A stretch of 64,000 bases of DNA from Naegleria gruberi (lineage: Eukaryota), in the NCBI GenBank assembly GCA_000004985.1, contig GG738914.1; one strand, given 5' to 3'. Under the pieces are notes generated by a model. The model was not told where the DNA came from. It saw only the letters and a program-made list of their open reading frames with translations, and made no database searches. The position numbers and the translations under genes are program-made. Positions 16,715-64,000 of this stretch are shown here, piece by piece; positions within the stretch are counted from its first letter, which is position 1; every line of letters starts with the position of its first letter.

Positions 16715-16795
16715 GCAGACTTGGCCGAGTGGTTAAGGCGACAGACTTGAAATCTGTTGGGGAAACCTTCGTAGGTTCGAATCCTGCAGTCTGCG
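16715..16795 (+). tRNA. tRNA-Ser (anticodon TGA), class II with long variable arm
   Basis: Acceptor GCAGACT/AGTCTGC+G. A box TGGCCGAGTGG. Anticodon loop CTTGAAA. T-arm GGTTCGAATCC. Long variable arm. Confidence 0.85.
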
Positions 16796-16877: not shown

Positions 16878-16958
16878 GCGGTCTTGACCGAGTGGTTAAG
16901 GTGATTGACTAGAAATCAATTGGGGCGACCCGCACAGGTTCGAGTCCTGTAGATCGCG
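16878..16958 (+). tRNA. tRNA-Ser (anticodon AGA), class II
   Basis: Acceptor GCGGTCT/AGATCGC (one G-T wobble) + G discriminator. D-arm ACC-GAGTGGTTAA-GGT. Anticodon loop CTAGAAA. T-loop TTCGAGT. Followed by T-runs (cagttttatctttt). Confidence 0.85.
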
Positions 16959-17405: not shown

Positions 17406-18149
17406 ATGCAAGGAAGAACGCTACTGCTTTTCACGCTCATCCTTTTATGTGTGCTAGCTTATTGTTGTGTAGAGAATGTTACTGCTGAATCATGGGGAAG
17501 TTTCTTGAGTCAATCTATGCAAGTTACAAATGGTAAGTGGAGTGTAATTTGACATTTTGGAAGAATTAAGCATTATGATCATTATTCATATTTAGGAAAA
17601 TTATTTTCATCATCAAAAAGATCACAAGTTGTTTGTCCTCCAAATACCTTTGGAAGTAAATGTAATAATAAGGTGAATCTCCCAGATACATATCCTCTCA
17701 AAAAAGGTCCGTTAATGATTGGCCAGATGGAGATTAATGATGGAAATTCTTATTCATGCGAGTGGACTATTTTTGTTTTAGAATTTAATCAAAGTTTTAG
17801 TTATCCCTGTTTTTTTGTCGTAGCCGATACAACTGTTCCACCAATCAATTACACTCTAACCTATTCAGTGTGGTCTGCAGGTTTCATAATTTTTTCAAAG
17901 GATGTTGTGTTTATTGATGGGATAATTCCAACATTGAATACTAAGGTGACCTACATGGGTGATTTCAATTTCTTGATTGACAAACCAATGAGCTGGGATG
18001 ATTCTGCCAACACATGCCAAGTTGGAATAGTTCAACAAAAGATTTCTTCATTGCAAGAACTTTCAAAGTTGAAAAACTTAACTACATTTGACATTCCTTG
18101 CAATTCATCTTCAACAATCAAGGTTCCATATTTTGGATATCCTTACTAA
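17406..18149 (+). CDS. Signal-peptide-bearing protein, two exons (17406-17532, 17596-18149). Possibly the 5' part of the downstream giant EGF protein gene
   Basis: ATG at 17406 gives MQGRTLLLFTLILLCVLAYCCVENVTAESWGSFLSQSMQVTN with a GTAAGT donor at 17533. A 63-nt AT-rich intron ends tatttag at 17595. Phase-1 junction is in frame with ORF 17673-18149. Confidence 0.45.
17533..17595 (+). other. Predicted spliceosomal intron (GTAAGT...TAG, 63 nt)
   Basis: Canonical donor directly after the signal-peptide exon. The acceptor restores the frame into the long ORF. Confidence 0.5.
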
Positions 18150-18183
18150 GATAGTGTTTTCCTATCATAATTTAAAATATTCA

Positions 18184-21100
18184 ATGTATGATAATTATAT
18201 TCAAGAAAGAACCTTAATTGAATACTTTCCAACATTTTTTGCAAATCTTGGAAACACGACAGACATTAGCATTTCAAACTCTGATAGAATTATCTCTTTC
18301 TATAGCATTGTGAGTTCTAACATTCCTGTTTTGAAATGCAAAGTCCAATTGAGTCTAGGAAATTCTCTCACTACCCTATTCGAATCTAATTGTTCTTCCT
18401 TTTTGAACTTTACCCATTCACTCACTCAATACAGCACCAATACGAATGCCTCCATCATAGTCACTCTCTCAAATCAAGAATACATGTTTGAAGAAAGTGA
18501 AACTTTTGACATGAATCTATCAAATTGTTCTCAGTGTCAAAATGGAATTTGTCGATTGTCTCAAAGTAGTATTGATGGTTCAACTCATTGCGAATGCTCA
18601 GGCTTGTTTGAAGGAGAATTTTGTCAAGAGTGTAAAGATGGTTTTGTCAAATTATCGGACAAGTGCGTTTGTCCGAATGGTTATCAACAAATTGGTTTTG
18701 GCTGTGTCTTTGTTAGTAGCTCAAACGCCACTTCCTGTTTTGGATATAGTGTCAAAGAAGGTGATCGTGCATGTTCTTATCATGGAATTTGTAATTTGAA
18801 TACTCATTTGTGTGAATGTAGTGAAAACTTTGATGGTGACAGATGTTCAACATGTAAGACAGGTTACACTGGTTCAAAGTGTGATATTCCAATTTGTCAT
18901 GATGTGAGTGCCATCGATTCAACTGTTTGTAATTCCAAAGGTGATTGTGTAGCACCTGACAGCTGTCAATGTAATGCAAATTATTATGGACCTAATTGTG
19001 CAAGCTTTAAATGTAATGGCATTGAAAAGAATAATGCTTTAGTTTGTTCATCACATGGTACATGTTCCAATGCTGATGTATGCACTTGTTCCTCAAATTA
19101 TGATTCGTCCACTTTCTGTTCAAAATGTCTTCCTTCCTACAATGGAACTGATTGTTCCATAAAAATTTGCAGCCCAGAAACCACTTGTAGAGGCCATGGA
19201 CAATGTAACGATCAATTACAATGTATCTGTAATGGAAAATTCACAGGCACCTATTGTGAAAAGTGTTTAGATGGTTGGGTTGGCAGTAATTGCGACATTA
19301 CTTGTTCTGCACAGACAACTTGTTCTGGAAAGGGAAGTTGTTCATCAACTGGATCTTGTATCTGCTCGGCAACTTCCTATGGAGATCATTGTGAGAATTG
19401 TAAAGATGGTTGGTATGGAGCTAATTGCGACTTTAGAATAGATTTTACATCTTTTGAATTTAATGAGAATGGTGATTCGATTAGTGCTTCTGTAAACTCT
19501 GTCATGAAGAAGAATATCAACTGTTCATCGCTCATTGTAAACACTGAAGTGTTAGGACAAGGTGCAACTTGTGTATTGGATGGTGATAAGAGTTTATTGA
19601 TCATTAATCTTGGCACCTTGGCAACTATTGTCATTAATGGAAATCTCATTATCAGAAACTACATTGACAGCAAATTAACAACCAATGCCAAAGTGTCAGG
19701 AACTTTCTATCAAAGAGTTGATCCTGTCGCCTCCTTGACATCTGAAAAGTCTGTCATTGGTTGTGGAACAATGTTCTTGGATGCTTCTTCATCCACTTCA
19801 TTGGACAGAAGAAGATTGTTATTCACATTCTCTGCAGTCACAGCTCCAAATAATCAAGCCTTATCAAACCTTAATAATCTCATTTCTGGAAATAGTGCAA
19901 GTACTGTCAAATTCTCAGTGAATAATTTTACAGGTGGATCTTATTCTGTTCAGGTTGCTGTTCAGAGCACATTCTCTGGTAGAGTTTCGTATGCTACGTT
20001 TGCATTCATGGTGACTGATGCCTCCCCACCAAATTTGAGTATTAAGAATGGTGTTTCGAGTACTGTGACTATTGGAAACTCATTTGTGGTTACACCAATT
20101 GTTTCATTCCCTTCATGTTATTCTGGTTCTGCTTTAATATCTAATCTGAAATTTACCTATACTCAAGTTAGCGGTGCTGCACTCCAGATTAAACAAAAGA
20201 ATGAATTGTTGGTGTTTAGTTCAGATTATACCAAGTTGACTGAAGAAGGTAAATATGTATTTAGTTTGAGTGCTGTTGAACAGGGATATCCAGGAGCATC
20301 CATCACATTCGAAATCATCGCAGTAGCCCTTCCATTGAAAGTTTCGTTCAATATTCGTGACATGTCTCAATCCATGGAAGATAAAATCTCGTTTACAGTA
20401 CTCAAACAGGATCCAAGTAATCCAGATGATGCAAGTGGACAAGTAGCTCTATCTTGTGTCAATATGGAAACTTTACAAAGTTGTGATGGTTTCGTCCAGA
20501 ATGGTGCAAATATTGATCAGACCACTTTGTTATTTAACCAAAAGTATGGACCTGGCGTTTATTTGTTTACTGCTGTGTACACCAAGGGTTCGAGATTCTC
20601 CTCTTCCAAAGTTAAAATCACTGTCACAAGTCAATCGAAATCATCCTTCTTGAGAATATACATTAATACTCCTTCCAATATTGATCTGACCTCAGTTGAC
20701 CCATCCACTTATTTAATTCTTCAAGCACAAAGCATCGACTCACTAAGCGTTCAAAGAATCTACTCATGGACAACTGATTTTGATTCCTCCTCCACCTCCT
20801 CATTGGATCTCAACAAGAAATACTTGTCCATTCCAAAGAGTTTACTTGTTCCTGGTGCTTCTTACACAGTTTCTGTTAAGGTTGTGGATGGAGCAAAGGT
20901 AGGTGAGGGAGTTATTTCATTTGTGGTCAATTCGCCTCCAACATTGGGAAGTTTGGAAATTAATCCATCGACAGGTGTTGCCCTCACTGATGAATTTAAG
21001 GTTTCATGTGGAAATGGGTGGTCGGATGTTCAACTCCCGCTGACCTTCAAGTTTTTGTACAGACTTCAAGGAGATGTGTTCTGGAAAGTATTGAAAGAAA

Positions 21101-22344
21101 GATCTGAAACGAGGTCTTTCAGTACTGTCATGCCAAGTGGACATATAGAAATCAAATCCATTGTCTATGATGCTTTAGGAGCCGCCACAGAAACAACACA
21201 AATCATTCAAGTCACTAATCCAGTTGACATTACATCAGCCGTTCAATCTTTGAATGCTATTAGTACTTCTTCAGTCACTTCCTCTTCGACCTCATCTGCA
21301 TTGAGTGTTATTCAATCATTGAAACCTCAAACTCAAGAAGAAAAGCAAAAATTGAGTGAAACTGGATCAAAGATTGCAATTGCCTATTTTTCACAGATAG
21401 AAAAGGAAGAAACCGTCACTTCCCAAACAGTTTCATCAACAGCCTCTTCAATTTCTGTTATTTCATCCATCAGTACTTGTATTTCAAATCTGCCTGAAAG
21501 CACAGTCAGTTTTATCATTACTAAATTCAAGTCAACTGTCGATGGCGCCAATTCAAAGCTTAATTTACCAGATGAAGATATTGAATCATCATTCAACAGT
21601 GCCACCACCATTCAATCCTATGTTGTCAAAAATGGAGAAAAGAGGGCAATCTATGTCTTCTCCAAAGTTGATATTACAATGTTAGATCAAATTAAGGAAA
21701 CTCTTGTTAACCTACAAGTGAAGAATTTAGTTGCAGACATGCCTGCTGCTAGAACATTCGGCACAGATTACTATTCATATATGAGATTAATGAGCGTTTC
21801 GTCTTTGAGTAATTTGAATGATACAATCAGTTCAGAATCTTCATTCTCTCTCAGTCAACCATTCAGCACACTATCACAATTTTCTAATTTGGATACTGTT
21901 AAACTTGTGATGAAAGTCCAACAACAAAACGAAAGTGTTACCAAACTTTTCTCATTCAAGGTAGTTTCTACCAATACTGAAATACCAATCAGTTCTGATT
22001 CAATTGCTGAACTCACCATTGAAAATAATGATGGAGTTGTACAAAATGCTGCCACTTACGAATGCAAGATTTTACAAAATGGACAATTGACATCATTGTC
22101 CTCATGTGTGATTGTTTCACACTCTGCAACCAGCTTTACAGTTAGGGTTCCTTCAACTGGTTCTTATGCAATTGTGGCCAATGTTAAGAAAGATGTTATT
22201 GTTGACATATTGTCAGAAGATAATTTGAAATATCTTGCTTTCCTATCATTGATTGTTCCAATTGTTGTGTTGATTGTCATTGTTTTCATTGTTGTGGTTT
22301 GTGTTATTAGAAAGAGAAAGAGAGCAAAAGTTCAAGGTGTTTAA
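18184..22344 (+). CDS. Very large type I membrane protein with ~12 EGF/tenascin-type repeats, a long S/T-rich extracellular region, C-terminal TM and basic tail. 5' end unresolved (frame open from 18088)
   Basis: First in-frame ATG at 18184 and no signal peptide of its own. EGF repeats CxCxxxFxGxxCxxC x12 (e.g. CECSGLFEGEFCQEC, CNGKFTGTYCEKC). TM LAFLSLIVPIVVLIVIVFIVVVCVI followed by RKRKRAKVQGV and stop. Confidence 0.65.
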   Translation: MYDNYIQERTLIEYFPTFFANLGNTTDISISNSDRIISFYSIVSSNIPVLKCKVQLSLGNSLTTLFESNCSSFLNFTHSLTQYSTNTNASIIVTLSNQEYMFEESETFDMNLSNCSQCQNGICRLSQSSIDGSTHCECSGLFEGEFCQECKDGFVKLSDKCVCPNGYQQIGFGCVFVSSSNATSCFGYSVKEGDRACSYHGICNLNTHLCECSENFDGDRCSTCKTGYTGSKCDIPICHDVSAIDSTVCNSKGDCVAPDSCQCNANYYGPNCASFKCNGIEKNNALVCSSHGTCSNADVCTCSSNYDSSTFCSKCLPSYNGTDCSIKICSPETTCRGHGQCNDQLQCICNGKFTGTYCEKCLDGWVGSNCDITCSAQTTCSGKGSCSSTGSCICSATSYGDHCENCKDGWYGANCDFRIDFTSFEFNENGDSISASVNSVMKKNINCSSLIVNTEVLGQGATCVLDGDKSLLIINLGTLATIVINGNLIIRNYIDSKLTTNAKVSGTFYQRVDPVASLTSEKSVIGCGTMFLDASSSTSLDRRRLLFTFSAVTAPNNQALSNLNNLISGNSASTVKFSVNNFTGGSYSVQVAVQSTFSGRVSYATFAFMVTDASPPNLSIKNGVSSTVTIGNSFVVTPIVSFPSCYSGSALISNLKFTYTQVSGAALQIKQKNELLVFSSDYTKLTEEGKYVFSLSAVEQGYPGASITFEIIAVALPLKVSFNIRDMSQSMEDKISFTVLKQDPSNPDDASGQVALSCVNMETLQSCDGFVQNGANIDQTTLLFNQKYGPGVYLFTAVYTKGSRFSSSKVKITVTSQSKSSFLRIYINTPSNIDLTSVDPSTYLILQAQSIDSLSVQRIYSWTTDFDSSSTSSLDLNKKYLSIPKSLLVPGASYTVSVKVVDGAKVGEGVISFVVNSPPTLGSLEINPSTGVALTDEFKVSCGNGWSDVQLPLTFKFLYRLQGDVFWKVLKERSETRSFSTVMPSGHIEIKSIVYDALGAATETTQIIQVTNPVDITSAVQSLNAISTSSVTSSSTSSALSVIQSLKPQTQEEKQKLSETGSKIAIAYFSQIEKEETVTSQTVSSTASSISVISSISTCISNLPESTVSFIITKFKSTVDGANSKLNLPDEDIESSFNSATTIQSYVVKNGEKRAIYVFSKVDITMLDQIKETLVNLQVKNLVADMPAARTFGTDYYSYMRLMSVSSLSNLNDTISSESSFSLSQPFSTLSQFSNLDTVKLVMKVQQQNESVTKLFSFKVVSTNTEIPISSDSIAELTIENNDGVVQNAATYECKILQNGQLTSLSSCVIVSHSATSFTVRVPSTGSYAIVANVKKDVIVDILSEDNLKYLAFLSLIVPIVVLIVIVFIVVVCVIRKRKRAKVQGV

Positions 22345-22487: not shown

Positions 22488-22568
22488 GCGGTCTTGACCG
22501 AGTGGTTAAGGTGATTGACTAGAAATCAATTGGGGAGACCCGCACAGGTTCGAGTCCTGTAGATCGCG
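22488..22568 (+). tRNA. tRNA-Ser (anticodon AGA), second copy
   Basis: Identical to 16878-16958 except one variable-arm base (GGGGAGACCC vs GGGGCGACCC). About 30 nt of 3' flank (atcagttttatcttttaaaaattaac) is also conserved. Confidence 0.85.
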
Positions 22569-35203: not shown

Positions 35204-35274
35204 GCGTCGATGGTTTAGTGGTAGAATACGGCGTTGCCATCGCCGTGACCCGGGTTCAATTCCCGGTCGACGCA
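35204..35274 (+). tRNA. tRNA-Gly (anticodon GCC)
   Basis: Acceptor GCGTCGA/TCGACGC+A. D-loop AGTGGTAGAA. Anticodon loop TTGCCAT. T-arm CCGGGTTCAATTCCCGG. Followed by T5 run. Confidence 0.9.
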
Positions 35275-38434: not shown

Positions 38435-40916
38435 TTAACCAATTGTTTCATTATCAAATAATTTCTCTAATTCCCTTTGAAAATCTTTCATTAAAATTGG
38501 TTTTTTTAATACCAAGTCGAATCCAGATTCTAGTAATGATTCATCACTCCCAAACATTTGCAGTTACTGCTACAATCTTGCATTTTCTCTCCTTCTCAAT
38601 TGACCTAATGAGTTTGCAACATTCCTTTCCACAGATAATTGGCATTAGTAAGTCCAATAAGATTAAATCAAAATTCATTTCCTTTTTGAATGTTTCTAAA
38701 GCTTCTAATCCATCACATGCTGTTTGAGAATTAAATCCAAGATTGTTTGTCATTTTCTGTAAAACTTTTCTATTGACTTGGTTGTCATCAACAACAAGAA
38801 CCTTTTTGGAATGAAAAATTGAATTAGAATTGGAAGGAGCAATTGATGTGAGTTTGGTTGATGAAATTTTAGAGTGGATTGTGGTAATAAAGTGTTCAAT
38901 TCGAGTAGGTAGGTAAATGTCAGATGTTGACAATTGAGAGGAATGCCTGAGACTCGTAGAAATAATTATAGCATTCGTAGTGATTGGACTAAATGATTCA
39001 ATAGTAAATATTTTTGAATTAGATGGGTAAAATATCAGAACTTTTGATTGTGGAAGGGTATTTGATTGGAAATATTTTGGAATATTTCCAATAACATCAT
39101 TTAGAGATTTCAAAGTATTAACTTTCATCGAATTTACATTTGGATAGATGGATCTACACAGTTGCTCTAAAGAATAGGATAAATTATCATTCTCTTCTAG
39201 AATTAAAACTTGTCTGATTGAAAAGTTCTTAATTTCCTCAATTTCCTCAGAAATTCTTGAATCAATTTTCGCAATTTGAGACATGTTACATTTCTTTAGA
39301 GGAATGTAGATTGTTACTTTGGTTCCAACTCCAATTTCACTCTCAAAATTGATTTTTCCATTCATTAGCTCAATGAATTGATTCGAAAGTGATAAACCAA
39401 TTCCATGGCTTTCGTGGAATGAGCCTCTATTTTGATTAATAACAGAATAAGAGTAATACCTTTCAAAATCCATAGATGCACCATCAACAGTGTGAAATGG
39501 TCGGAATAAATTACGAATATCTTTTGTTGGTATTCCAATACCAGTATCCTGACAAGTTACTTTCAAACATATAAATTCCTCCGTATCAATAATGCTCCTT
39601 CCCTCTAAGAATGGATAATCTTCATCTGTTTTATCACAAACTGTGCAATTCAACATAATACTTCCTTTTTTAGTGTATTTGACAGAATTAGAAACAAAGT
39701 TGAGCAAGATTTGTGACAATCTAACATGATCTCCTATCAAATATAGTGGAACCTTATTTAAATCAAGAACAGATTGCAGCATCAGTCCTTTTTCTTTGGC
39801 TAAATTTGTGAAAACTGACAATATTGAATCAGTCAATTCTAAAATATTAAATGGAAAGTTGTTGAGCTTAATTTTACCAAGTTCTAAGTTGCTAATCTGA
39901 AGATAGTTCGAAAATACATCCATGAAAATCTTGGAATTGCTTTCAATATCATGTAATAATTCTAATTGAGCCTTCAAGTCGTTTTGCAACCTAGTGACAA
40001 ACTTTCCAAAACTCTCTATTTTCAATCCCACCAAATTTTGTAAAGTTTCCGAAATCTTTTTCATATCTAGTTGCATTAATTCAACAGTAACCAAAAGTCC
40101 ATGTAATGGATTTCTCAACTCATGAGACAAATTGGAAATAAATTTCGTCTTGGATTTGTTCATTTCTTTTTGATTGTAAAGAGCAATTCTGGAATTAATG
40201 GTTTCATCGTATTGTTGTTCCACTAAATCTTCATATACAAATCCAATAAATATGGGAGTGCTGAATGCTATGATCGGTTCCAACAGTTTGATTATTCTAT
40301 CTCTGTTCGAATCCCAAATATGTTGAAATACGTAAGGTGTTTGCCTTTCTAGATGCGTTAAGGTAAAGAACTTGCCTCCATTTCCTAAATGTTTCGAACT
40401 ATACTCAAAAGCAAGGTACTGTGCAACAATATTCGAAATGAAAATAACCAGGAAGTTCAATATCAACATTTTCTTTCTAAAATAGGAAGTATGAGTCAAG
40501 GTCAACAAGGCATACATATTTATCAACCAGATTGGAACTTCCCTTCCCAAATAAACCTGCATGGTCAATCTGACCATCGCATTTGCCACAGTTTTGGCTA
40601 AATACCCAAATTCCAAAGTATTCAAATGATTCAAATCTTTGCTCTTCAACACTGCTCTACCTGCAATTGCATTCACAATCAAATCAATCGCAACAAGTAT
40701 CAAGAAATTCACTCTCTCAATAAAATTCTCAATCCAAAATGAACAAATCAGAAGAATCATGACGAAATATCCCAAAAAAACTGGAGCCATTCGTTGTTGG
40801 ACACTATTAATCTTCATTTTGAATTTGATATTGTCCATGCATCTTCCCTGTTGCTCCTGCTTAGCAAAAAGATTCGGAAGAATTTGAGAAAGCTGTTTGG
40901 CGTAGTAATTGACCAT
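38435..40916 (-). CDS. Membrane-anchored hybrid histidine kinase (multi-TM sensor region, HisKA, HATPase_c, C-terminal receiver). An apparent 1-nt indel near 38568-38578 truncates the receiver domain
   Basis: ATG at 40916. H-box LSHELRNPLHGLL. N/G boxes (NSVKYTKKGSI, DTGIGIP, GIGLSLS). Receiver VLVVDDNQVNRKVL...DLILLDLLMPIICG...IVAVTAN, then stop. The +1 frame immediately continues MFGSDESLLESGFDLVLKKPILMKDFQRELEKLF, the canonical receiver C-terminus. Confidence 0.75.
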
Positions 40917-41136
40917 TTTTTTGTGATGTTGAGGAGATATTGAACATCATGATGAATTATTTACATATCATCCTACATCGTCTTCGGTTTTGATCCATAT
41001 GATATAATTTTTTCTAAATATTCATAATCTCTTTGATGATGAACTTCATAAAGAAAGACTTAGTAGTATGGACGGCAGGTTATCTCATAAGGCCAGTTTT
41101 CATTAGGATAAAGAGATGAATGATGATGAAGTATTT

Positions 41137-50045: not shown

Positions 50046-51121
50046 TTAAAAGAGGCCACCAAAAACAGGGCCTTCTTCCTCTTCATCTACTGCTATGGCA
50101 ACGAAACTAGGGTGTTCTTGGTCCTCTTCATCGACTACTACTCCTTCATTTGGAGATTTGAAAATATTGTTAGCATTATCAGTTGGGGAAAGCTTGTTTA
50201 CAATATTCTTCATTCCAAATTTGTTACAAGCACACAAGAGTGCTTGTTTGGTATCTTCATCCAATTTACTTCCAATAATTCCATAATTTAATCAAGTATA
50301 TGTGAAAAAATTAATGGATTACAATCAATGAAATAAATTGGATCATCAAACTGTTTTGAAGCTGGTGTTTGATAACATGGATATTCACCATTGAACATTT
50401 TCTTAAACAAGTTATCAGGTTCTTGTTGATTGGAGGTGAAATCTCCCAACGAAACTGTCATTATAGTTCCTCTCACATTCAAGTGAATTGGTTTGTTGCT
50501 ATTTTCGAGCTTTTCTCTTGCCAATACTTGATTTTCAAATTCGTTCATTCTAGTTTCCAATAATTCTTCTTTCTTTCTAAATTGGTCTATTAATTGTTGT
50601 TCAAGGGATGCCAATCTATCTTTTGAAACAGTCAATAATTGTTCATTTTCAGTTTGTAATGCTGCCATCCGTTCCAGGTGTTCTCTTTCCAATTTACTCT
50701 TGAATTCTTCGACTTGTTGATATGCTTCATGGAGTGGACAGTACTTTTCTTGATGGTCTTTCAACTCACCTCTCAATACAATATTCTTACACATGCCACA
50801 CTTGACTTTCAATTTATCCAACATGTTTCGAATAGTTTTGGCACTTGCTGCACAATTCTTCTTGAATCCACCTTCGTTACACAATGGACAAACCGTTACA
50901 TTCTCAATACATTTGGCACAGAAAGTATTTCCGCATGAATTATGGGAAATTGGATCCACGAAAGGATGTAAACAAATAGAACAAATTAAATCTTCATCAA
51001 TTTCCTTCTCTACATAATCGAATAGCACTTCTTCTTTCTCCTCCTTGATCAATGGTGTGTTGGAGGAAGTTATTGACGAGTTGGCTATTAGCTTGCGTTG
51101 TTTGAGTTTTTTTAACCCCAT
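50046..51121 (-). CDS. RING-finger / TRAF-type zinc-finger / coiled-coil / BTB(T1, KCTD-like) protein. An apparent 1-nt deletion in a T-run near 50285-50290 splits the BTB domain
   Basis: ATG at 51121. RING CSICLHPFVDPISHNSCGNTFCAKCIENVTVCPLC. TRAF-zf-like KCGMCKNIVLRGELKDHQEKYCPL. Coiled coil. T1-like IHLNVRGTIMTVSLGDF...YFIDCNPLIFSHILD, then stop. The -1 frame continues LNYGIIGSKLDEDTKQALLCACNKFGMKNIVNKL (T1 C-terminal consensus). 'gatTTaaat' in place of 'gatTaaat' would fuse them. Confidence 0.6.
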
Positions 51122-52198: not shown

Positions 52199-54121
52199 AT
52201 GTCAATGAAAGAATATATAGAGCTCATCTTTTTATCTTCGTATCAGAATCCTTCACTAATAGTCAATGGTCATGCTTCATCAACAGCGCCATTTTCGTCA
52301 TCTTTACATAACGTTTTATTGGAAAGTTTGAATAGCTCAACAACAATAACCAACACAACAAACAATGGTACATCAAACTTTTGTGATCCGTCACTGTTTA
52401 ATACACCTTGGAGTAGAGAAGTGAATGGAAGTGTCATTTACGGGCTTTGTCCAGATACTTATTTCTCAATGGCTTTTTGTTTGGCATTTGTTGTACTTTA
52501 TCTGTTAGTTGTCATTTTGAGTGGTGTTGGAGTTTATTGGAAGAGGAAGAGTGGTCATATTGTGGCTAGGAATCCAATCTACCTCTACTTTACATTAGGA
52601 GCTGCACTATTCTTTGTGATATCTCTTACTATGAGAGTGATTGTGGGCAGGAAAATATATCCGTGTGGATTGTTGACTGCTTCCTTTTTTACATTCCCTC
52701 CTGCAATTTGTTTACCTACCATCTTTAGAATGATGAGAACATTCTTCATGTATAAGATTAATTTACAAAAGGCCAAATTATTCGATTCCTCTACTGGCAC
52801 CAATAAGCCGGAGGGGAAAGATTTTGAATTATTTAAAGGAGCAGTAGAACCTGAAATCAAACATGAAACGCCAACACCAGGAATTGATTTTTCACAAATA
52901 TTTCATGCTGAGACTTCTCCTTCTGTTCACCAAAATAATCCATTCGTAGGAAGTCCTAGTTCAACAGTTGACTCACTCAGTAGTACCACAGATGATGTGG
53001 ATGACGTTTCGAATTCCAATACTGGAATTGATTCAGAATCTATTGCTGATGTTTCAACATGGAATTTTACAGAACTCAAAGAAATTCAATCACTCAGATC
53101 TGAAATTAGAAAGTTGAAGATTTACAATTTTGTGACCAGTTTGAAATTTATTACCATTTTTTACATTCTGGGTTTTATATTTGGACTTGTAGTATGGCTG
53201 ATTATTGGAGGTATAGAAGAAGCTTTATATTCATTCAATACTAGTCCAGATAAGAAACGTATCTTCCTCTATGATGGTGGATTGTTTGTTTTTGATCATG
53301 GTTGTGGAATGACATCAAACTCTATCATTATCGTTGGTATTGAAGCAATTTTATACATTATTCTAGAGTTTATCTGTTTCATAATGTGTGTCAGAGCTGA
53401 TAAAGATACTTGGGGTATCAAGTTAGAATCTCTCACATTGATTGTAATTCAGATTCTTAGTGCAATAATTTTCCTAGTGGCAGGAAATATAGAATTCATT
53501 TTCAACTTTACAGAATATTATTTCCCATATGGATTTGTATTGTGGGGTTACATGCTGATTGAAATTATTGTTTGTGTGACACTTCCAGTTCTCTATGCCA
53601 TTGTAAGAGATAATAAGGACAAGGTTCAACAAGCAGCTCAATTGAGTACTTTGGAAAAGATTTTGAAAAATAAGAAAACCTTCCAAGTTATGCTTGATTT
53701 TGCAAGAAGAAGTTATTGTACTGAAAGTATATTGTGTTGGAGGGATATTCAGAGATATAGATTGGCAAGAAAGAAAAGTCATAGAAAAAAGGCAATCATT
53801 CACATACTTGGAGTTTATTTGACATTTGGAGCTCCCTTGGAATTAAACATGCCAAATGTAGAGAAACTGAAACAGGAAATTCTAGCTCAAATTACTGGAG
53901 GAAAATTTATAGTAACAGAAGGATTGATTGTTGATGCCAATGAAATTTCCAAAATTATGAATGGTAATGCACTTGTACAACTTCACACAAACTTGTTCCA
54001 AGCTGTACAGGAGCATTGTTTGAATGATATGAGTGATTTATTTGAAAGATTGAAGAATTCTAATAAGGAGATTGCAGAGATTGTCAAGTCACATAAGGAA
54101 CTTTCACAAACCGTGAACTAA
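52199..54121 (+). CDS. Seven-transmembrane receptor fused to a C-terminal RGS domain, paralog of 43386-45302
   Basis: ATG at 52199 (MSMKEYIELIF). Shared blocks with the paralog: GxCPDTxF, KRKSGHIxARNPI, GRKIxPCxL, GGIEE, RxFLxDGGL, DTWxIKxE. RGS block FQVMLDFARRSYCTESILCWRDIQRYRLA...LELNMP...DLFERLKNSN. Confidence 0.7.
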   Translation: MSMKEYIELIFLSSYQNPSLIVNGHASSTAPFSSSLHNVLLESLNSSTTITNTTNNGTSNFCDPSLFNTPWSREVNGSVIYGLCPDTYFSMAFCLAFVVLYLLVVILSGVGVYWKRKSGHIVARNPIYLYFTLGAALFFVISLTMRVIVGRKIYPCGLLTASFFTFPPAICLPTIFRMMRTFFMYKINLQKAKLFDSSTGTNKPEGKDFELFKGAVEPEIKHETPTPGIDFSQIFHAETSPSVHQNNPFVGSPSSTVDSLSSTTDDVDDVSNSNTGIDSESIADVSTWNFTELKEIQSLRSEIRKLKIYNFVTSLKFITIFYILGFIFGLVVWLIIGGIEEALYSFNTSPDKKRIFLYDGGLFVFDHGCGMTSNSIIIVGIEAILYIILEFICFIMCVRADKDTWGIKLESLTLIVIQILSAIIFLVAGNIEFIFNFTEYYFPYGFVLWGYMLIEIIVCVTLPVLYAIVRDNKDKVQQAAQLSTLEKILKNKKTFQVMLDFARRSYCTESILCWRDIQRYRLARKKSHRKKAIIHILGVYLTFGAPLELNMPNVEKLKQEILAQITGGKFIVTEGLIVDANEISKIMNGNALVQLHTNLFQAVQEHCLNDMSDLFERLKNSNKEIAEIVKSHKELSQTVN

Positions 54122-59318: not shown

Positions 59319-59877
<559 letters not shown>

Positions 59878-60366
59878 NNNNNNNNNNNNNNNNNNNNNNN
59901 NNNNNNNNNNNNNNNNNNNNNNNNNNNGACCATGATGGTTGAGGGAAGAAATCTTTAAATATGAAAGTTAAAATAAATTTGATATTCGATGTATACTCAC
60001 CAAATGGAACATTTTCATGTCAGGATTCAATATGTTTTGATGAGAAACTCAAAAGTTATAGTTGACCTATTGTACCTCACAACTTCCCTTTTCCCTCTAT
60101 ACTTTTATATCTACAGACTTGAACTTTTGAAATTTGATATGAAAGTGATTATAGATGTTGTTAATGATGATATATACTATATAATCTCATTAAAGGATTT
60201 GAAATTATCATTCTTCCTATAGTTTCATTTTACAAATTTTAATCTGCCACTATTTACAAAGTTAATATTTTATAAATTGAAAAACTAAATATAACACGTT
60301 GTTCTACTCATCATTTCCAATCGAATGATATAAAATTTAATGATATTTGAATAAGTTTATAATTTT

Positions 60367-60943
60367 GGGCTAGGGTTTGAAGATTGGGTTTGGAAGAATT
60401 CTATTTTTAGAATTGGGTTTGGGTTTGGGTTTGGGTTTGGGTTTGGGTTTAGGTTTGGGTTTGGGTTTGGGTTTGGGTTTGGGTTTGGGTTTGGGTTTGG
60501 GTTTGGGTTTGGGTTTGGGTTTGGGTTTGGGTTTGGGTTTGGGTTTGGGTTTGGGTTTGGGTTTGGGTTTGGGTTTGGGTTTGGGTTTGGGTTTGGGTTT
60601 GGGTTTGGGTTTGGGTTTGGGTTTGGGTTTGGGTTTGGGTTTGGGTTTGGGTTTGGGTTTGGGTTTGGGTTTGGGTTTGGGTTTGGGTTTGGGTTTGGGT
60701 TTGGGTTTGGGTTTGGGTTTGGGTTGGGTTTGGGTTTGGGTTTGGGTTTGGGTTTGGGTTTGGGTTTGGGTTTGGGTTTGGGTTTGGGTTTGGGTTTGGG
60801 TTTGGGTTTGGGTTTGGGTTTGGGTTTGGGTTTGGGTTTGGGTTTGGGTTTGGGTTTGGGTTTGGGTTTGGGTTTGGGTTTGGGTTTGGGTTTGGGTTTG
60901 GGTTTGGGTTTGGGTTTGGGTTTGGGTTTGGGTTTGGGTTTGG
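60367..60943 (+). repeat. Telomere-like hexamer array (TTTGGG)n with the G-rich strand on +. Degenerate proximal units 60367-60414, then about 88 perfect units running into the 1.8-kb N-gap
   Basis: gggctagggtttgaagattgggtttggaag... then gggttt x n. Single 5-nt variant unit (gggtt) at ~60721, which is what flips the ORF-track translation from GLGL to WVWV. Confidence 0.8.
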
Positions 60944-63540
60944 NNNNNNNNNNNNNNNNNNNNNNNNNNNNNNNNNNNNNNNNNNNNNNNNNNNNNNNNN
61001 NNNNNNNNNNNNNNNNNNNNNNNNNNNNNNNNNNNNNNNNNNNNNNNNNNNNNNNNNNNNNNNNNNNNNNNNNNNNNNNNNNNNNNNNNNNNNNNNNNNN
61101 NNNNNNNNNNNNNNNNNNNNNNNNNNNNNNNNNNNNNNNNNNNNNNNNNNNNNNNNNNNNNNNNNNNNNNNNNNNNNNNNNNNNNNNNNNNNNNNNNNNN
61201 NNNNNNNNNNNNNNNNNNNNNNNNNNNNNNNNNNNNNNNNNNNNNNNNNNNNNNNNNNNNNNNNNNNNNNNNNNNNNNNNNNNNNNNNNNNNNNNNNNNN
61301 NNNNNNNNNNNNNNNNNNNNNNNNNNNNNNNNNNNNNNNNNNNNNNNNNNNNNNNNNNNNNNNNNNNNNNNNNNNNNNNNNNNNNNNNNNNNNNNNNNNN
61401 NNNNNNNNNNNNNNNNNNNNNNNNNNNNNNNNNNNNNNNNNNNNNNNNNNNNNNNNNNNNNNNNNNNNNNNNNNNNNNNNNNNNNNNNNNNNNNNNNNNN
61501 NNNNNNNNNNNNNNNNNNNNNNNNNNNNNNNNNNNNNNNNNNNNNNNNNNNNNNNNNNNNNNNNNNNNNNNNNNNNNNNNNNNNNNNNNNNNNNNNNNNN
61601 NNNNNNNNNNNNNNNNNNNNNNNNNNNNNNNNNNNNNNNNNNNNNNNNNNNNNNNNNNNNNNNNNNNNNNNNNNNNNNNNNNNNNNNNNNNNNNNNNNNN
61701 NNNNNNNNNNNNNNNNNNNNNNNNNNNNNNNNNNNNNNNNNNNNNNNNNNNNNNNNNNNNNNNNNNNNNNNNNNNNNNNNNNNNNNNNNNNNNNNNNNNN
61801 NNNNNNNNNNNNNNNNNNNNNNNNNNNNNNNNNNNNNNNNNNNNNNNNNNNNNNNNNNNNNNNNNNNNNNNNNNNNNNNNNNNNNNNNNNNNNNNNNNNN
61901 NNNNNNNNNNNNNNNNNNNNNNNNNNNNNNNNNNNNNNNNNNNNNNNNNNNNNNNNNNNNNNNNNNNNNNNNNNNNNNNNNNNNNNNNNNNNNNNNNNNN
62001 NNNNNNNNNNNNNNNNNNNNNNNNNNNNNNNNNNNNNNNNNNNNNNNNNNNNNNNNNNNNNNNNNNNNNNNNNNNNNNNNNNNNNNNNNNNNNNNNNNNN
62101 NNNNNNNNNNNNNNNNNNNNNNNNNNNNNNNNNNNNNNNNNNNNNNNNNNNNNNNNNNNNNNNNNNNNNNNNNNNNNNNNNNNNNNNNNNNNNNNNNNNN
62201 NNNNNNNNNNNNNNNNNNNNNNNNNNNNNNNNNNNNNNNNNNNNNNNNNNNNNNNNNNNNNNNNNNNNNNNNNNNNNNNNNNNNNNNNNNNNNNNNNNNN
62301 NNNNNNNNNNNNNNNNNNNNNNNNNNNNNNNNNNNNNNNNNNNNNNNNNNNNNNNNNNNNNNNNNNNNNNNNNNNNNNNNNNNNNNNNNNNNNNNNNNNN
62401 NNNNNNNNNNNNNNNNNNNNNNNNNNNNNNNNNNNNNNNNNNNNNNNNNNNNNNNNNNNNNNNNNNNNNNNNNNNNNNNNNNNNNNNNNNNNNNNNNNNN
62501 NNNNNNNNNNNNNNNNNNNNNNNNNNNNNNNNNNNNNNNNNNNNNNNNNNNNNNNNNNNNNNNNNNNNNNNNNNNNNNNNNNNNNNNNNNNNNNNNNNNN
62601 NNNNNNNNNNNNNNNNNNNNNNNNNNNNNNNNNNNNNNNNNNNNNNNNNNNNNNNNNNNNNNNNNNNNNNNNNNNNNNNNNNNNNNNNNNNNNNNNNNNN
62701 NNNNNNNNNNNNNNNNNNNNNNNNNNNNNNNNNNNNNNNNNNNNNNNNNNNNNNNNNNNACCATGTAGAAATGTTGGAAGTATAATATATAATATCCTTA
62801 GTATACTGTACTCATTCTACCTTAATTGACCAAGATATTGAGCCATACTATGGAAATACTATAACATTCAATCAAACTCATTATTATAGTAGAAAATATC
62901 AATTATAATCATATATAATTGAAATAATCATTATTGGATCCACATACAGACTGTAGGAAGTCAACTTGTGTGAAAATGATAATATCGGTTATTGAAGGAT
63001 GAATATCTTACATGACTTAATTCCACTCATGTATACATGTCTAATTATCATGTTTTATGATATATAATTGAAATAATTGAAATCTATCATATATATAGGG
63101 AGATAACCAATTAGGATGAAAGTAGCGGAAGTTACGCTCACTTTTTACCAGGTAAACACTTTCAATAGGGACCTATATATTTTATTTGATAATATCGTAT
63201 ATCTATGCATTTTATCGATAAATAATTGGTTTCATGATTTTATATTCTATATTTCCAATTTGGGAAATGTTGCAATGTCTAATCTCAATTGAAATATTGT
63301 CATAATACCAGTTATTGATTATATATCATGAAACTGATATTATAGACTCTATTTGATGTATATATGAATATATGAGTGAAATATTACAATTTTGATATTT
63401 CTTAATGACATGGGTAGTTCACTAAGGTAGTGACTTTGCCCTATGATAACTATCTAAGATGATATTGAAATCATTCTAAAATTGATTCTATGGCAGTATT
63501 TGATGATTATTACACGATAATATTGAATTGGTATTGATTC

Positions 63541-64000
63541 TTGCTTGGGTTTGGGTTGGGTTTGGGTTTGGGTTTGGGTTTGGGTTTGGGTTTGGGTTTG
63601 GGTTTGGGTTTGGGTTTGGGTTTGGGTTTGGGTTTGGGTTTGGGTTTGGGTTTGGGTTTGGGTTTGGGTTTGGGTTTGGGTTTGGGTTTGGGTTTGGGTT
63701 TGGGTTTGGGTTTGGGTTTGGGTTTGGGTTTGGGTTTGGGTTTGGGTTTGGGTTTGGGTTTGGGTTTGGGTTTGGGTTTGGGTTTGGGTTTGGGTTTGGG
63801 TTTGGGTTTGGGTTTGGGTTTGGGTTTGGGTTTGGGTTTGGGTTTGGGTTTGGGTTTGGGTTTGGGTTTGGGTTTGGGGTTTGGGTTTGGGTTTGGGTTT
63901 GGGTTTGGGTTTGGGTTTGGGTTTGGGTTTGGGTTTGGGTTTGGGTTTGGGTTTGGGTTTGGGTTTGGGTTTGGGTTTGGGTTTGGGTTTGGGTTTGGGT
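63541..64000 (+). repeat. Terminal telomere-like (TTTGGG)n array extending to the window end
   Basis: About 76 units in the same orientation as the first array. Variant units gggtt at ~63551 and ggggttt at ~63871. Preceded by 780 bp of unique AT-rich sequence. Confidence 0.8.

Follow-up and report, generated by a model that had tools for sequence, protein, structure and literature searches.

Telomere repeats are the binding platform for capping proteins. The Tetrahymena telomere is built from TTGGGG, and that of Paramecium from a mix of TTGGGG and TTTGGG. Telomeric sequence is also found at internal positions: in yeast, internal TG1-3 tracts lie between the Y' elements, which carry a helicase gene, and vertebrates and plants have interstitial telomeric sequences. 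False scaffold joins through repeats, in turn, occur in paired-end Sanger-era assemblies. Here, we analyze a stretch of 64,000 nucleotides from the heterolobosean Naegleria gruberi (NCBI GenBank assembly GCA_000004985.1, contig GG738914.1), referred to below as the window, whose right end carries two long (TTTGGG)n arrays (array 1 and array 2) separated by an assembly gap and a unique spacer. Judged by their sequence, both arrays are taken to be true telomeric repeat tracts of N. gruberi. The layout of the last 4 kb is most probably a scaffolding artefact, an explanation that we prefer over a healed telomere.

The repeat unit itself has been described. TTTGGG was put forward as the candidate telomere repeat of N. 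gruberi by Fulneckova et al. in 2013 (Genome Biol Evol; PMC3622300), in an in silico survey of the ends of assembly sequences that took their orientation into account. The same survey noted that terminal position still needs experimental proof and that internal telomere blocks are present in many genome assemblies (PMC3622300). TTTGGG is thus already known, and published, as the candidate N. gruberi telomere unit (PMC3622300). The present window was very probably among the places counted in 2013, and our result, obtained in the same species, for the same hexamer and by in silico detection, does not differ in kind. In the literature searched, nothing on Naegleria telomeres, telomerase, TERT or subtelomeres was found beyond the 2013 survey, and no later experimental work. 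N. gruberi has also been re-assembled from nanopore data (PMC12695648).

Composition and orientation of the arrays

Tandem Repeats Finder (TRF) describes array 1 as a tract of period 6 with 88.7 copies (99% matches, score 1048) and array 2 as one of 76.0 copies (99% matches, score 896). When the tracts were parsed unit by unit, 85 perfect TTTGGG units made up 96% of array 1, and 74 made up 97% of array 2. The sole variants in both arrays are one TTTAGG at 60448, two TTGGG units at 60724 and 63556, and one TTTGGGG at 63873, which amounts to two to three variant units in array 1 and likewise in array 2; the two tracts are equally pure. In both, the G-rich strand is the plus strand, with unique DNA on the left and TTTGGG running rightward, 5' to 3' toward the end, and in the window sequence each array reaches a contig end with its G-strand outward. 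The two long GGGTTT/TTTGGG arrays in one orientation that the first-pass annotation had described, with the G-rich strand directed rightward, are therefore present as stated. The assembled lengths, 531 bp for array 1 and at least 456 bp for array 2, reflect the reach of the reads and not the real tract lengths: array 1 is cut off at a gap, and its 531 bp are the length assembled up to the first N.

A chance origin of the arrays is excluded, because no tandem TTTGGG or CCCAAA pair is found in the rest of the window. A motif search for (TTTGGG)2 and (CCCAAA)2 returned zero occurrences in positions 1–60300, and outside the array region the hexamers are isolated (six TTTGGG and twelve CCCAAA), with no tandem pair among them. 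The two arrays begin differently. The 50 nucleotides that precede array 1 (60363–60412) contain three T[T/A]GGG motifs where the rate in the rest of the window predicts 0.04 (per 50 nt; Poisson P ~1e-5), which bears out the earlier observation of degenerate units on this side. The junction between the spacer and array 2 is abrupt (...CTTGC followed directly by TTGGGTTTGGG).

The arrays share with ciliate telomeres a six-base TnGm unit that lacks A, presumed synthesis by telomerase and a G-strand that points toward the end, and TTTGGG is one of the two units of Paramecium. General telomere biology suggests that a telomerase with a CCCAAA-containing RNA template would extend the 3' end of the G-strand. 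The window tracts differ from those of ciliates in being near-pure TTTGGG, with one TTTGGGG in ~165 units, and in belonging to a heterolobosean that uses the standard genetic code. A ciliate source of the repeat was considered on account of the Paramecium unit and rejected on the standard code and an exact N. gruberi protein match: the open reading frame (ORF) at 50288–51121 on the minus strand encodes 277 aa that are 100% identical, over their full length, to a 'predicted protein [Naegleria gruberi]'. The window has a GC content of 33.7%, with long intron-poor ORFs in the standard code and densely packed genes.

Table 1. Features of the window and of the environmental contigs compared with it. 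Positions refer to the window unless a locus (L) is named.
Feature	Position	Strand	Basis or remark
Actin gene, 5' half (residues 1-184); last gene before the telomere-bearing pieces	59325..59877	+	Pfam, tblastn
Assembly gap, 50 N	59878..59927	.	Inside the actin gene; parts main contig from contig B
Contig B flank, unique, AT-rich, subtelomeric	59928..60362	+	No similarity, no Rfam match, short frames
Degenerate telomere-like units (TTTTGGGC TAGGG TTTGAAGA TTGGG TTTGGAAGAA ...)	60363..60412	+	Motif count, unit parse
Telomeric array 1, (TTTGGG)n, ~89 units	60413..60943	+	TRF; ends at first N
Assembly gap, 1,816 N	60944..62759	.	Between contig B and contig C
Contig C flank, unique, AT-rich ('780-bp spacer'), 785 bp, 26.5% GC	62760..63544	+	No similarity, no Rfam match, short frames
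Telomeric array 2, (TTTGGG)n, 76 units	63545..64000	+	TRF; extends to window edge
tRNA-Ser(TGA)	16715-16795	+	
tRNA-Ser(AGA)	16878-16958	+	
tRNA-Ser(AGA)	22488-22568	+	
tRNA-Gly(GCC)	35204-35274	+	
Large EGF/REJ-domain protein	18082-22341	+	
Hybrid histidine kinase with receiver domain (signalling)	38547-40946	-	
Membrane RGS-domain protein	52199-54121	+	
JAESGV01 contigs with terminal array	L003, L012, L013, L019, L038, L039, L041, L042, L050, L057		
JAESGV01 contigs with terminal array, continued	L059, L064, L069, L080, L085, L087, L088, L093, L101, L108		
Ty3/gypsy-type polyprotein and PPR-like ORFs	L042:1-3762 / L042:5671-11509		

Contig anatomy and the truncated actin gene

The window contains five N runs in all, two of which flank the contig that bears array 1. 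The right end consequently falls into three pieces: the main contig, which extends to 59877; contig B, of 1,016 bp (59928–60943), which carries array 1; and contig C, which starts at 62760, carries array 2 and continues as far as the window edge, over at least 1,241 bp. Contigs B and C each span roughly one or two read lengths and are joined to their neighbours across N runs only. Array 1 stops exactly at the 1,816-N run, as seen in both the N-run list and the sequence, and the distance from the main contig to contig C is 2,882 bp. Of the five gaps, two have a length of exactly 50 N, apparently a floor value. The N. gruberi NEG-M genome is a Sanger whole-genome shotgun assembly from JGI whose scaffolds rest on clone-end pairs; such an assembly agrees with the N-run pattern, including the two runs of exactly 50.

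The join between the main contig and contig B is faulty as drawn, because half of an actin gene is missing there. The actin fragment that ends at the 50-N gap matches the Pfam Actin profile with E=5.8e-73 over profile positions 2–176 of 410. When a full-length actin was used as a tblastn query against the whole window, only residues 3–182 were matched, at 59337–59876; the C-terminal ~190 aa of actin were not found anywhere in the window, and the sequence to the right of the 50-N gap is not actin. The gap of 50 N would have to accommodate at least 570 bp of coding sequence for actin. Either the size of this gap or the join itself is wrong. Gene density stays high to within ~1 kb of array 1.

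The flanking sequences of contigs B and C

Contig B has 485 bp of sequence before array 1 (59928–60412; 26% GC). The longest open frame is 79 codons in the contig B flank (flank B) and 61 codons in the contig C flank (flank C). Neither flank has significant similarity to the other or to the other 60 kb of the window, and the resemblance between flanks B and C that would be expected for alleles, or for copies of one subtelomeric element, is absent. Hidden RNA or coding sequence in the flanks was considered and rejected, as Rfam returned no RNA gene match even at E<=1 and the open frames are all short. No match to either flank was found among 120 TTTGGG-bearing metagenome loci, and the junction between flank C and the telomeric tract has no exact match in metagenome contigs. 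The 780-bp spacer, whose recurrence beside other arrays the first-pass annotation had proposed to look for, has no second copy in the window and none in these 120 loci.

Flank C contains a direct repeat, ATATATAATTGAAATAAT, at 62911–62928 and 63060–63077. The first-pass annotation had described a duplication of about 30 nt in the spacer; the duplication exists, at 62911 and 63060, and its exact length is 18 nt. An exact repeat of this length exceeds every repeat found in 300 base-composition shuffles (maximum 16), and it may be a simple AT-rich slippage or duplication.

TTTGGG arrays in environmental contigs

Metagenome contigs were scanned for (TTTGGG)8, which yielded 124 arrays (at least 24 bp) in 120 loci (L001–L120). 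Internal positions account for 71 of the 124, mostly as short tracts in GC-rich contigs, and the TTTGGG unit alone is therefore not diagnostic of a telomere; it is also found, in other organisms, as a simple microsatellite. Many of the contigs with internal arrays have 55–70% GC and are unlikely to be heterolobosean. Among the 53 arrays at contig ends, the G-strand points outward in 42 and in the opposite direction in 11 (binomial P=2e-5). Metagenome tracts are 48–130 bp long, against 456 bp and at least 531 bp in the window.

In one environmental whole-genome shotgun set, JAESGV01, the array lies at the true contig end with the G-strand outward in 20 of 20 contigs (orientation alone, P=2e-6). 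The JAESGV01 contigs are AT-rich and contain ORFs of 1,000–1,350 codons in the standard code, so the organism is not a ciliate. Its SET1-like protein (1,293 aa) has its closest named match in Acrasis kona, a heterolobosean (49% identity, E=3e-227), and the next named matches are animal proteins at ~E=1e-65. We tentatively regard the JAESGV01 organism as heterolobosean, mainly on this one gene. No telomere repeat was found at the one Acrasis kona contig end examined (L121) or at the ends of the related contig L122, a result that is uninformative. The suggestion that the repeat unit may be informative of lineage is upheld by its standing as the 2013 candidate telomere of N. gruberi and by the 20 of 20 ends in this heterolobosean-like assembly, which are independent support for a terminal role of TTTGGG in the group.

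The JAESGV01 contigs also show how such arrays begin. Most junctions are abrupt, as for flank C, and the junction of L041 contains degenerate TTGGGG, TTGGG and TGGG units; both junction styles of the window, degenerate and abrupt, thus occur in a related organism. In L088, an internal (TTTGGG)4 lies ~130 bp inside of the terminal tract. Some internal telomere sequence is natural in the group, because L088 has this short tract near its terminal one.

Origin of the array-gap-spacer-array order

The order seen in the last 4 kb was probably produced when two separate chromosome ends were chained, or when one stray end was inserted, and false linkage through the repeat is, as we infer from contig anatomy, the most likely cause. 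The evidence that counts for such an artefact is that array 1 ends at an N, at least 570 bp of actin are absent, the flanks are unrelated and the two tracts are equal in purity. Contigs B and C each comprise unique subtelomeric DNA, a few hundred bases long, that runs into the repeat up to the read limit. Reads made entirely of TTTGGG could be assigned to any telomere, and read pairs from one chromosome end could falsely link to another, which would yield a chain of ends in the same orientation. At most one of B and C would then be the true end of the actin-bearing chromosome; if it were C, the missing half of actin could be accommodated in the 2.9 kb that separate C from the main contig, and B would be a stray contig misplaced there. 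The locus resembles known false scaffold joins in its short contigs that end in a multi-locus repeat, in its joins made by N runs only and in the faulty join next to them. The first-pass annotation had named a mis-scaffolded end as one possibility, and, going by the contig anatomy, it is the more probable explanation. Two observations weigh against it. The scaffolder assigned a specific gap estimate of 1,816, so some clone links existed, and some of these may have been anchored in unique sequence; and the short internal TTTGGG tract beside the terminal one in L088 indicates that some internal telomere sequence is natural in the group.

The first-pass annotation had also proposed an interstitial array, a captured 780-bp element and a current telomere. 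In its present form, this explanation takes the layout to be real, with at least 0.5 kb of internal tract followed by an element of ~2.6 kb (1,816 bp plus the 785 bp of flank C) and a terminal telomere, and it could have originated by chromosome-end capture, by healing and recombinational addition, or as a tandem Y'-like subtelomeric element. We consider it unlikely. Both arrays do lie in one orientation, as it predicts, but a same-orientation chain is also the exact product of false links through the telomere repeat. The scaffolder gave a definite estimate for the distance of C; however, there are zero bases of continuous sequence between array 1 and C, and instead of non-telomeric sequence on both sides of array 1, 1,816 N follow it directly. 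The degenerate units proximal to array 1 are of the kind expected at a long-standing junction, yet the body of the internal tract is no more degenerate than that of the terminal one (96% versus 97% perfect units); array 1 is not marked as old or unmaintained, because it is as pure as array 2. Internal telomere blocks in many assemblies and the tract in L088 lend the layout some plausibility, and the demonstrably faulty 50-N join alongside takes some away. The scaffold layout of tract, kilobase-scale element and tract in one orientation is like that of yeast Y' elements and of interstitial telomeric sequences, and differs from them in that an N run rather than sequence lies beyond the internal tract and in that this tract is long and undegraded. 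Unlike a Y' element, the visible part of the candidate element (785 bp, adjoining the 1,816 bp of N) has no long ORF (61 codons at most) and no second copy in the window. The annotation's proposal is thus not sustained, given the 1,816 N in between, the lack of extra decay, the faulty join and the unrelated flanks. That the scaffold is right as drawn, with a pristine internal tract of at least 0.5 kb, a ~2.6 kb element and a second terminal tract, seems quite improbable.

That the arrays have no relation to chromosome ends and are just internal microsatellites or satellite blocks of a hexanucleotide is very improbable indeed. The 71 of 124 metagenome arrays that are internal, mostly in GC-rich contigs, provide a precedent for such blocks, but these contigs carry tracts of 48–130 bp rather than the 456 bp and at least 531 bp of the window, where both arrays sit at a contig end, G-strand outward, and the other 60 kb contain no further array. 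TTTGGG is, moreover, the published candidate telomere of the species, and in the heterolobosean-like assembly it is present at 20 of 20 contig ends. False linkage of genuine telomeric contigs, rather than either of these alternatives, remains the explanation that we favor.

Other features of the window and of the JAESGV01 contigs

Among the genes of the window (Table 1), two of the tRNA-Ser genes are 83 bp apart, and the histidine kinase, EGF/REJ and RGS genes are ordinary Naegleria-type signalling genes near the end.

In the JAESGV01 contig L042, a Ty3/gypsy-type polyprotein with reverse transcriptase (RT), RNase H and integrase reads directly into the terminal telomere tract. Adjoining it are two long PPR-like ORFs; Pfam showed a DYW deaminase domain in the one that was scanned, and the other is similar to it in C-terminal sequence. 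L080 and L093 have in common a repeated motif (AAAGACATCTGGC...CTTGTAGTGT...) within the ~160 bp next to the telomere. This motif suggests that the JAESGV01 organism has a family of subtelomeric repeats; nothing similar to it is present in the window flanks.

Significance for Naegleria chromosome ends

The biological weight of the finding is low, as the repeat unit is already published and the window adds one or two examples of it. Its practical value lies in quality control: no structure should be read from the last 4 kb, where two telomere-bearing fragments are probably chained, and the actin gene at 59325 is incomplete. If true, the scaffold layout would be left over from a recent event of telomere capture or healing, or would represent a tandem subtelomeric element; in either case it would be the first subtelomere structure described in Heterolobosea. 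A small gain comes from the 20 of 20 JAESGV01 ends, which independently support TTTGGG as the terminal repeat in the group. In the same contigs, coding sequence often comes as close as tens to hundreds of bases to the repeat, and the presence of genes within a few hundred bases of it suggests that subtelomeres in this lineage are very short.

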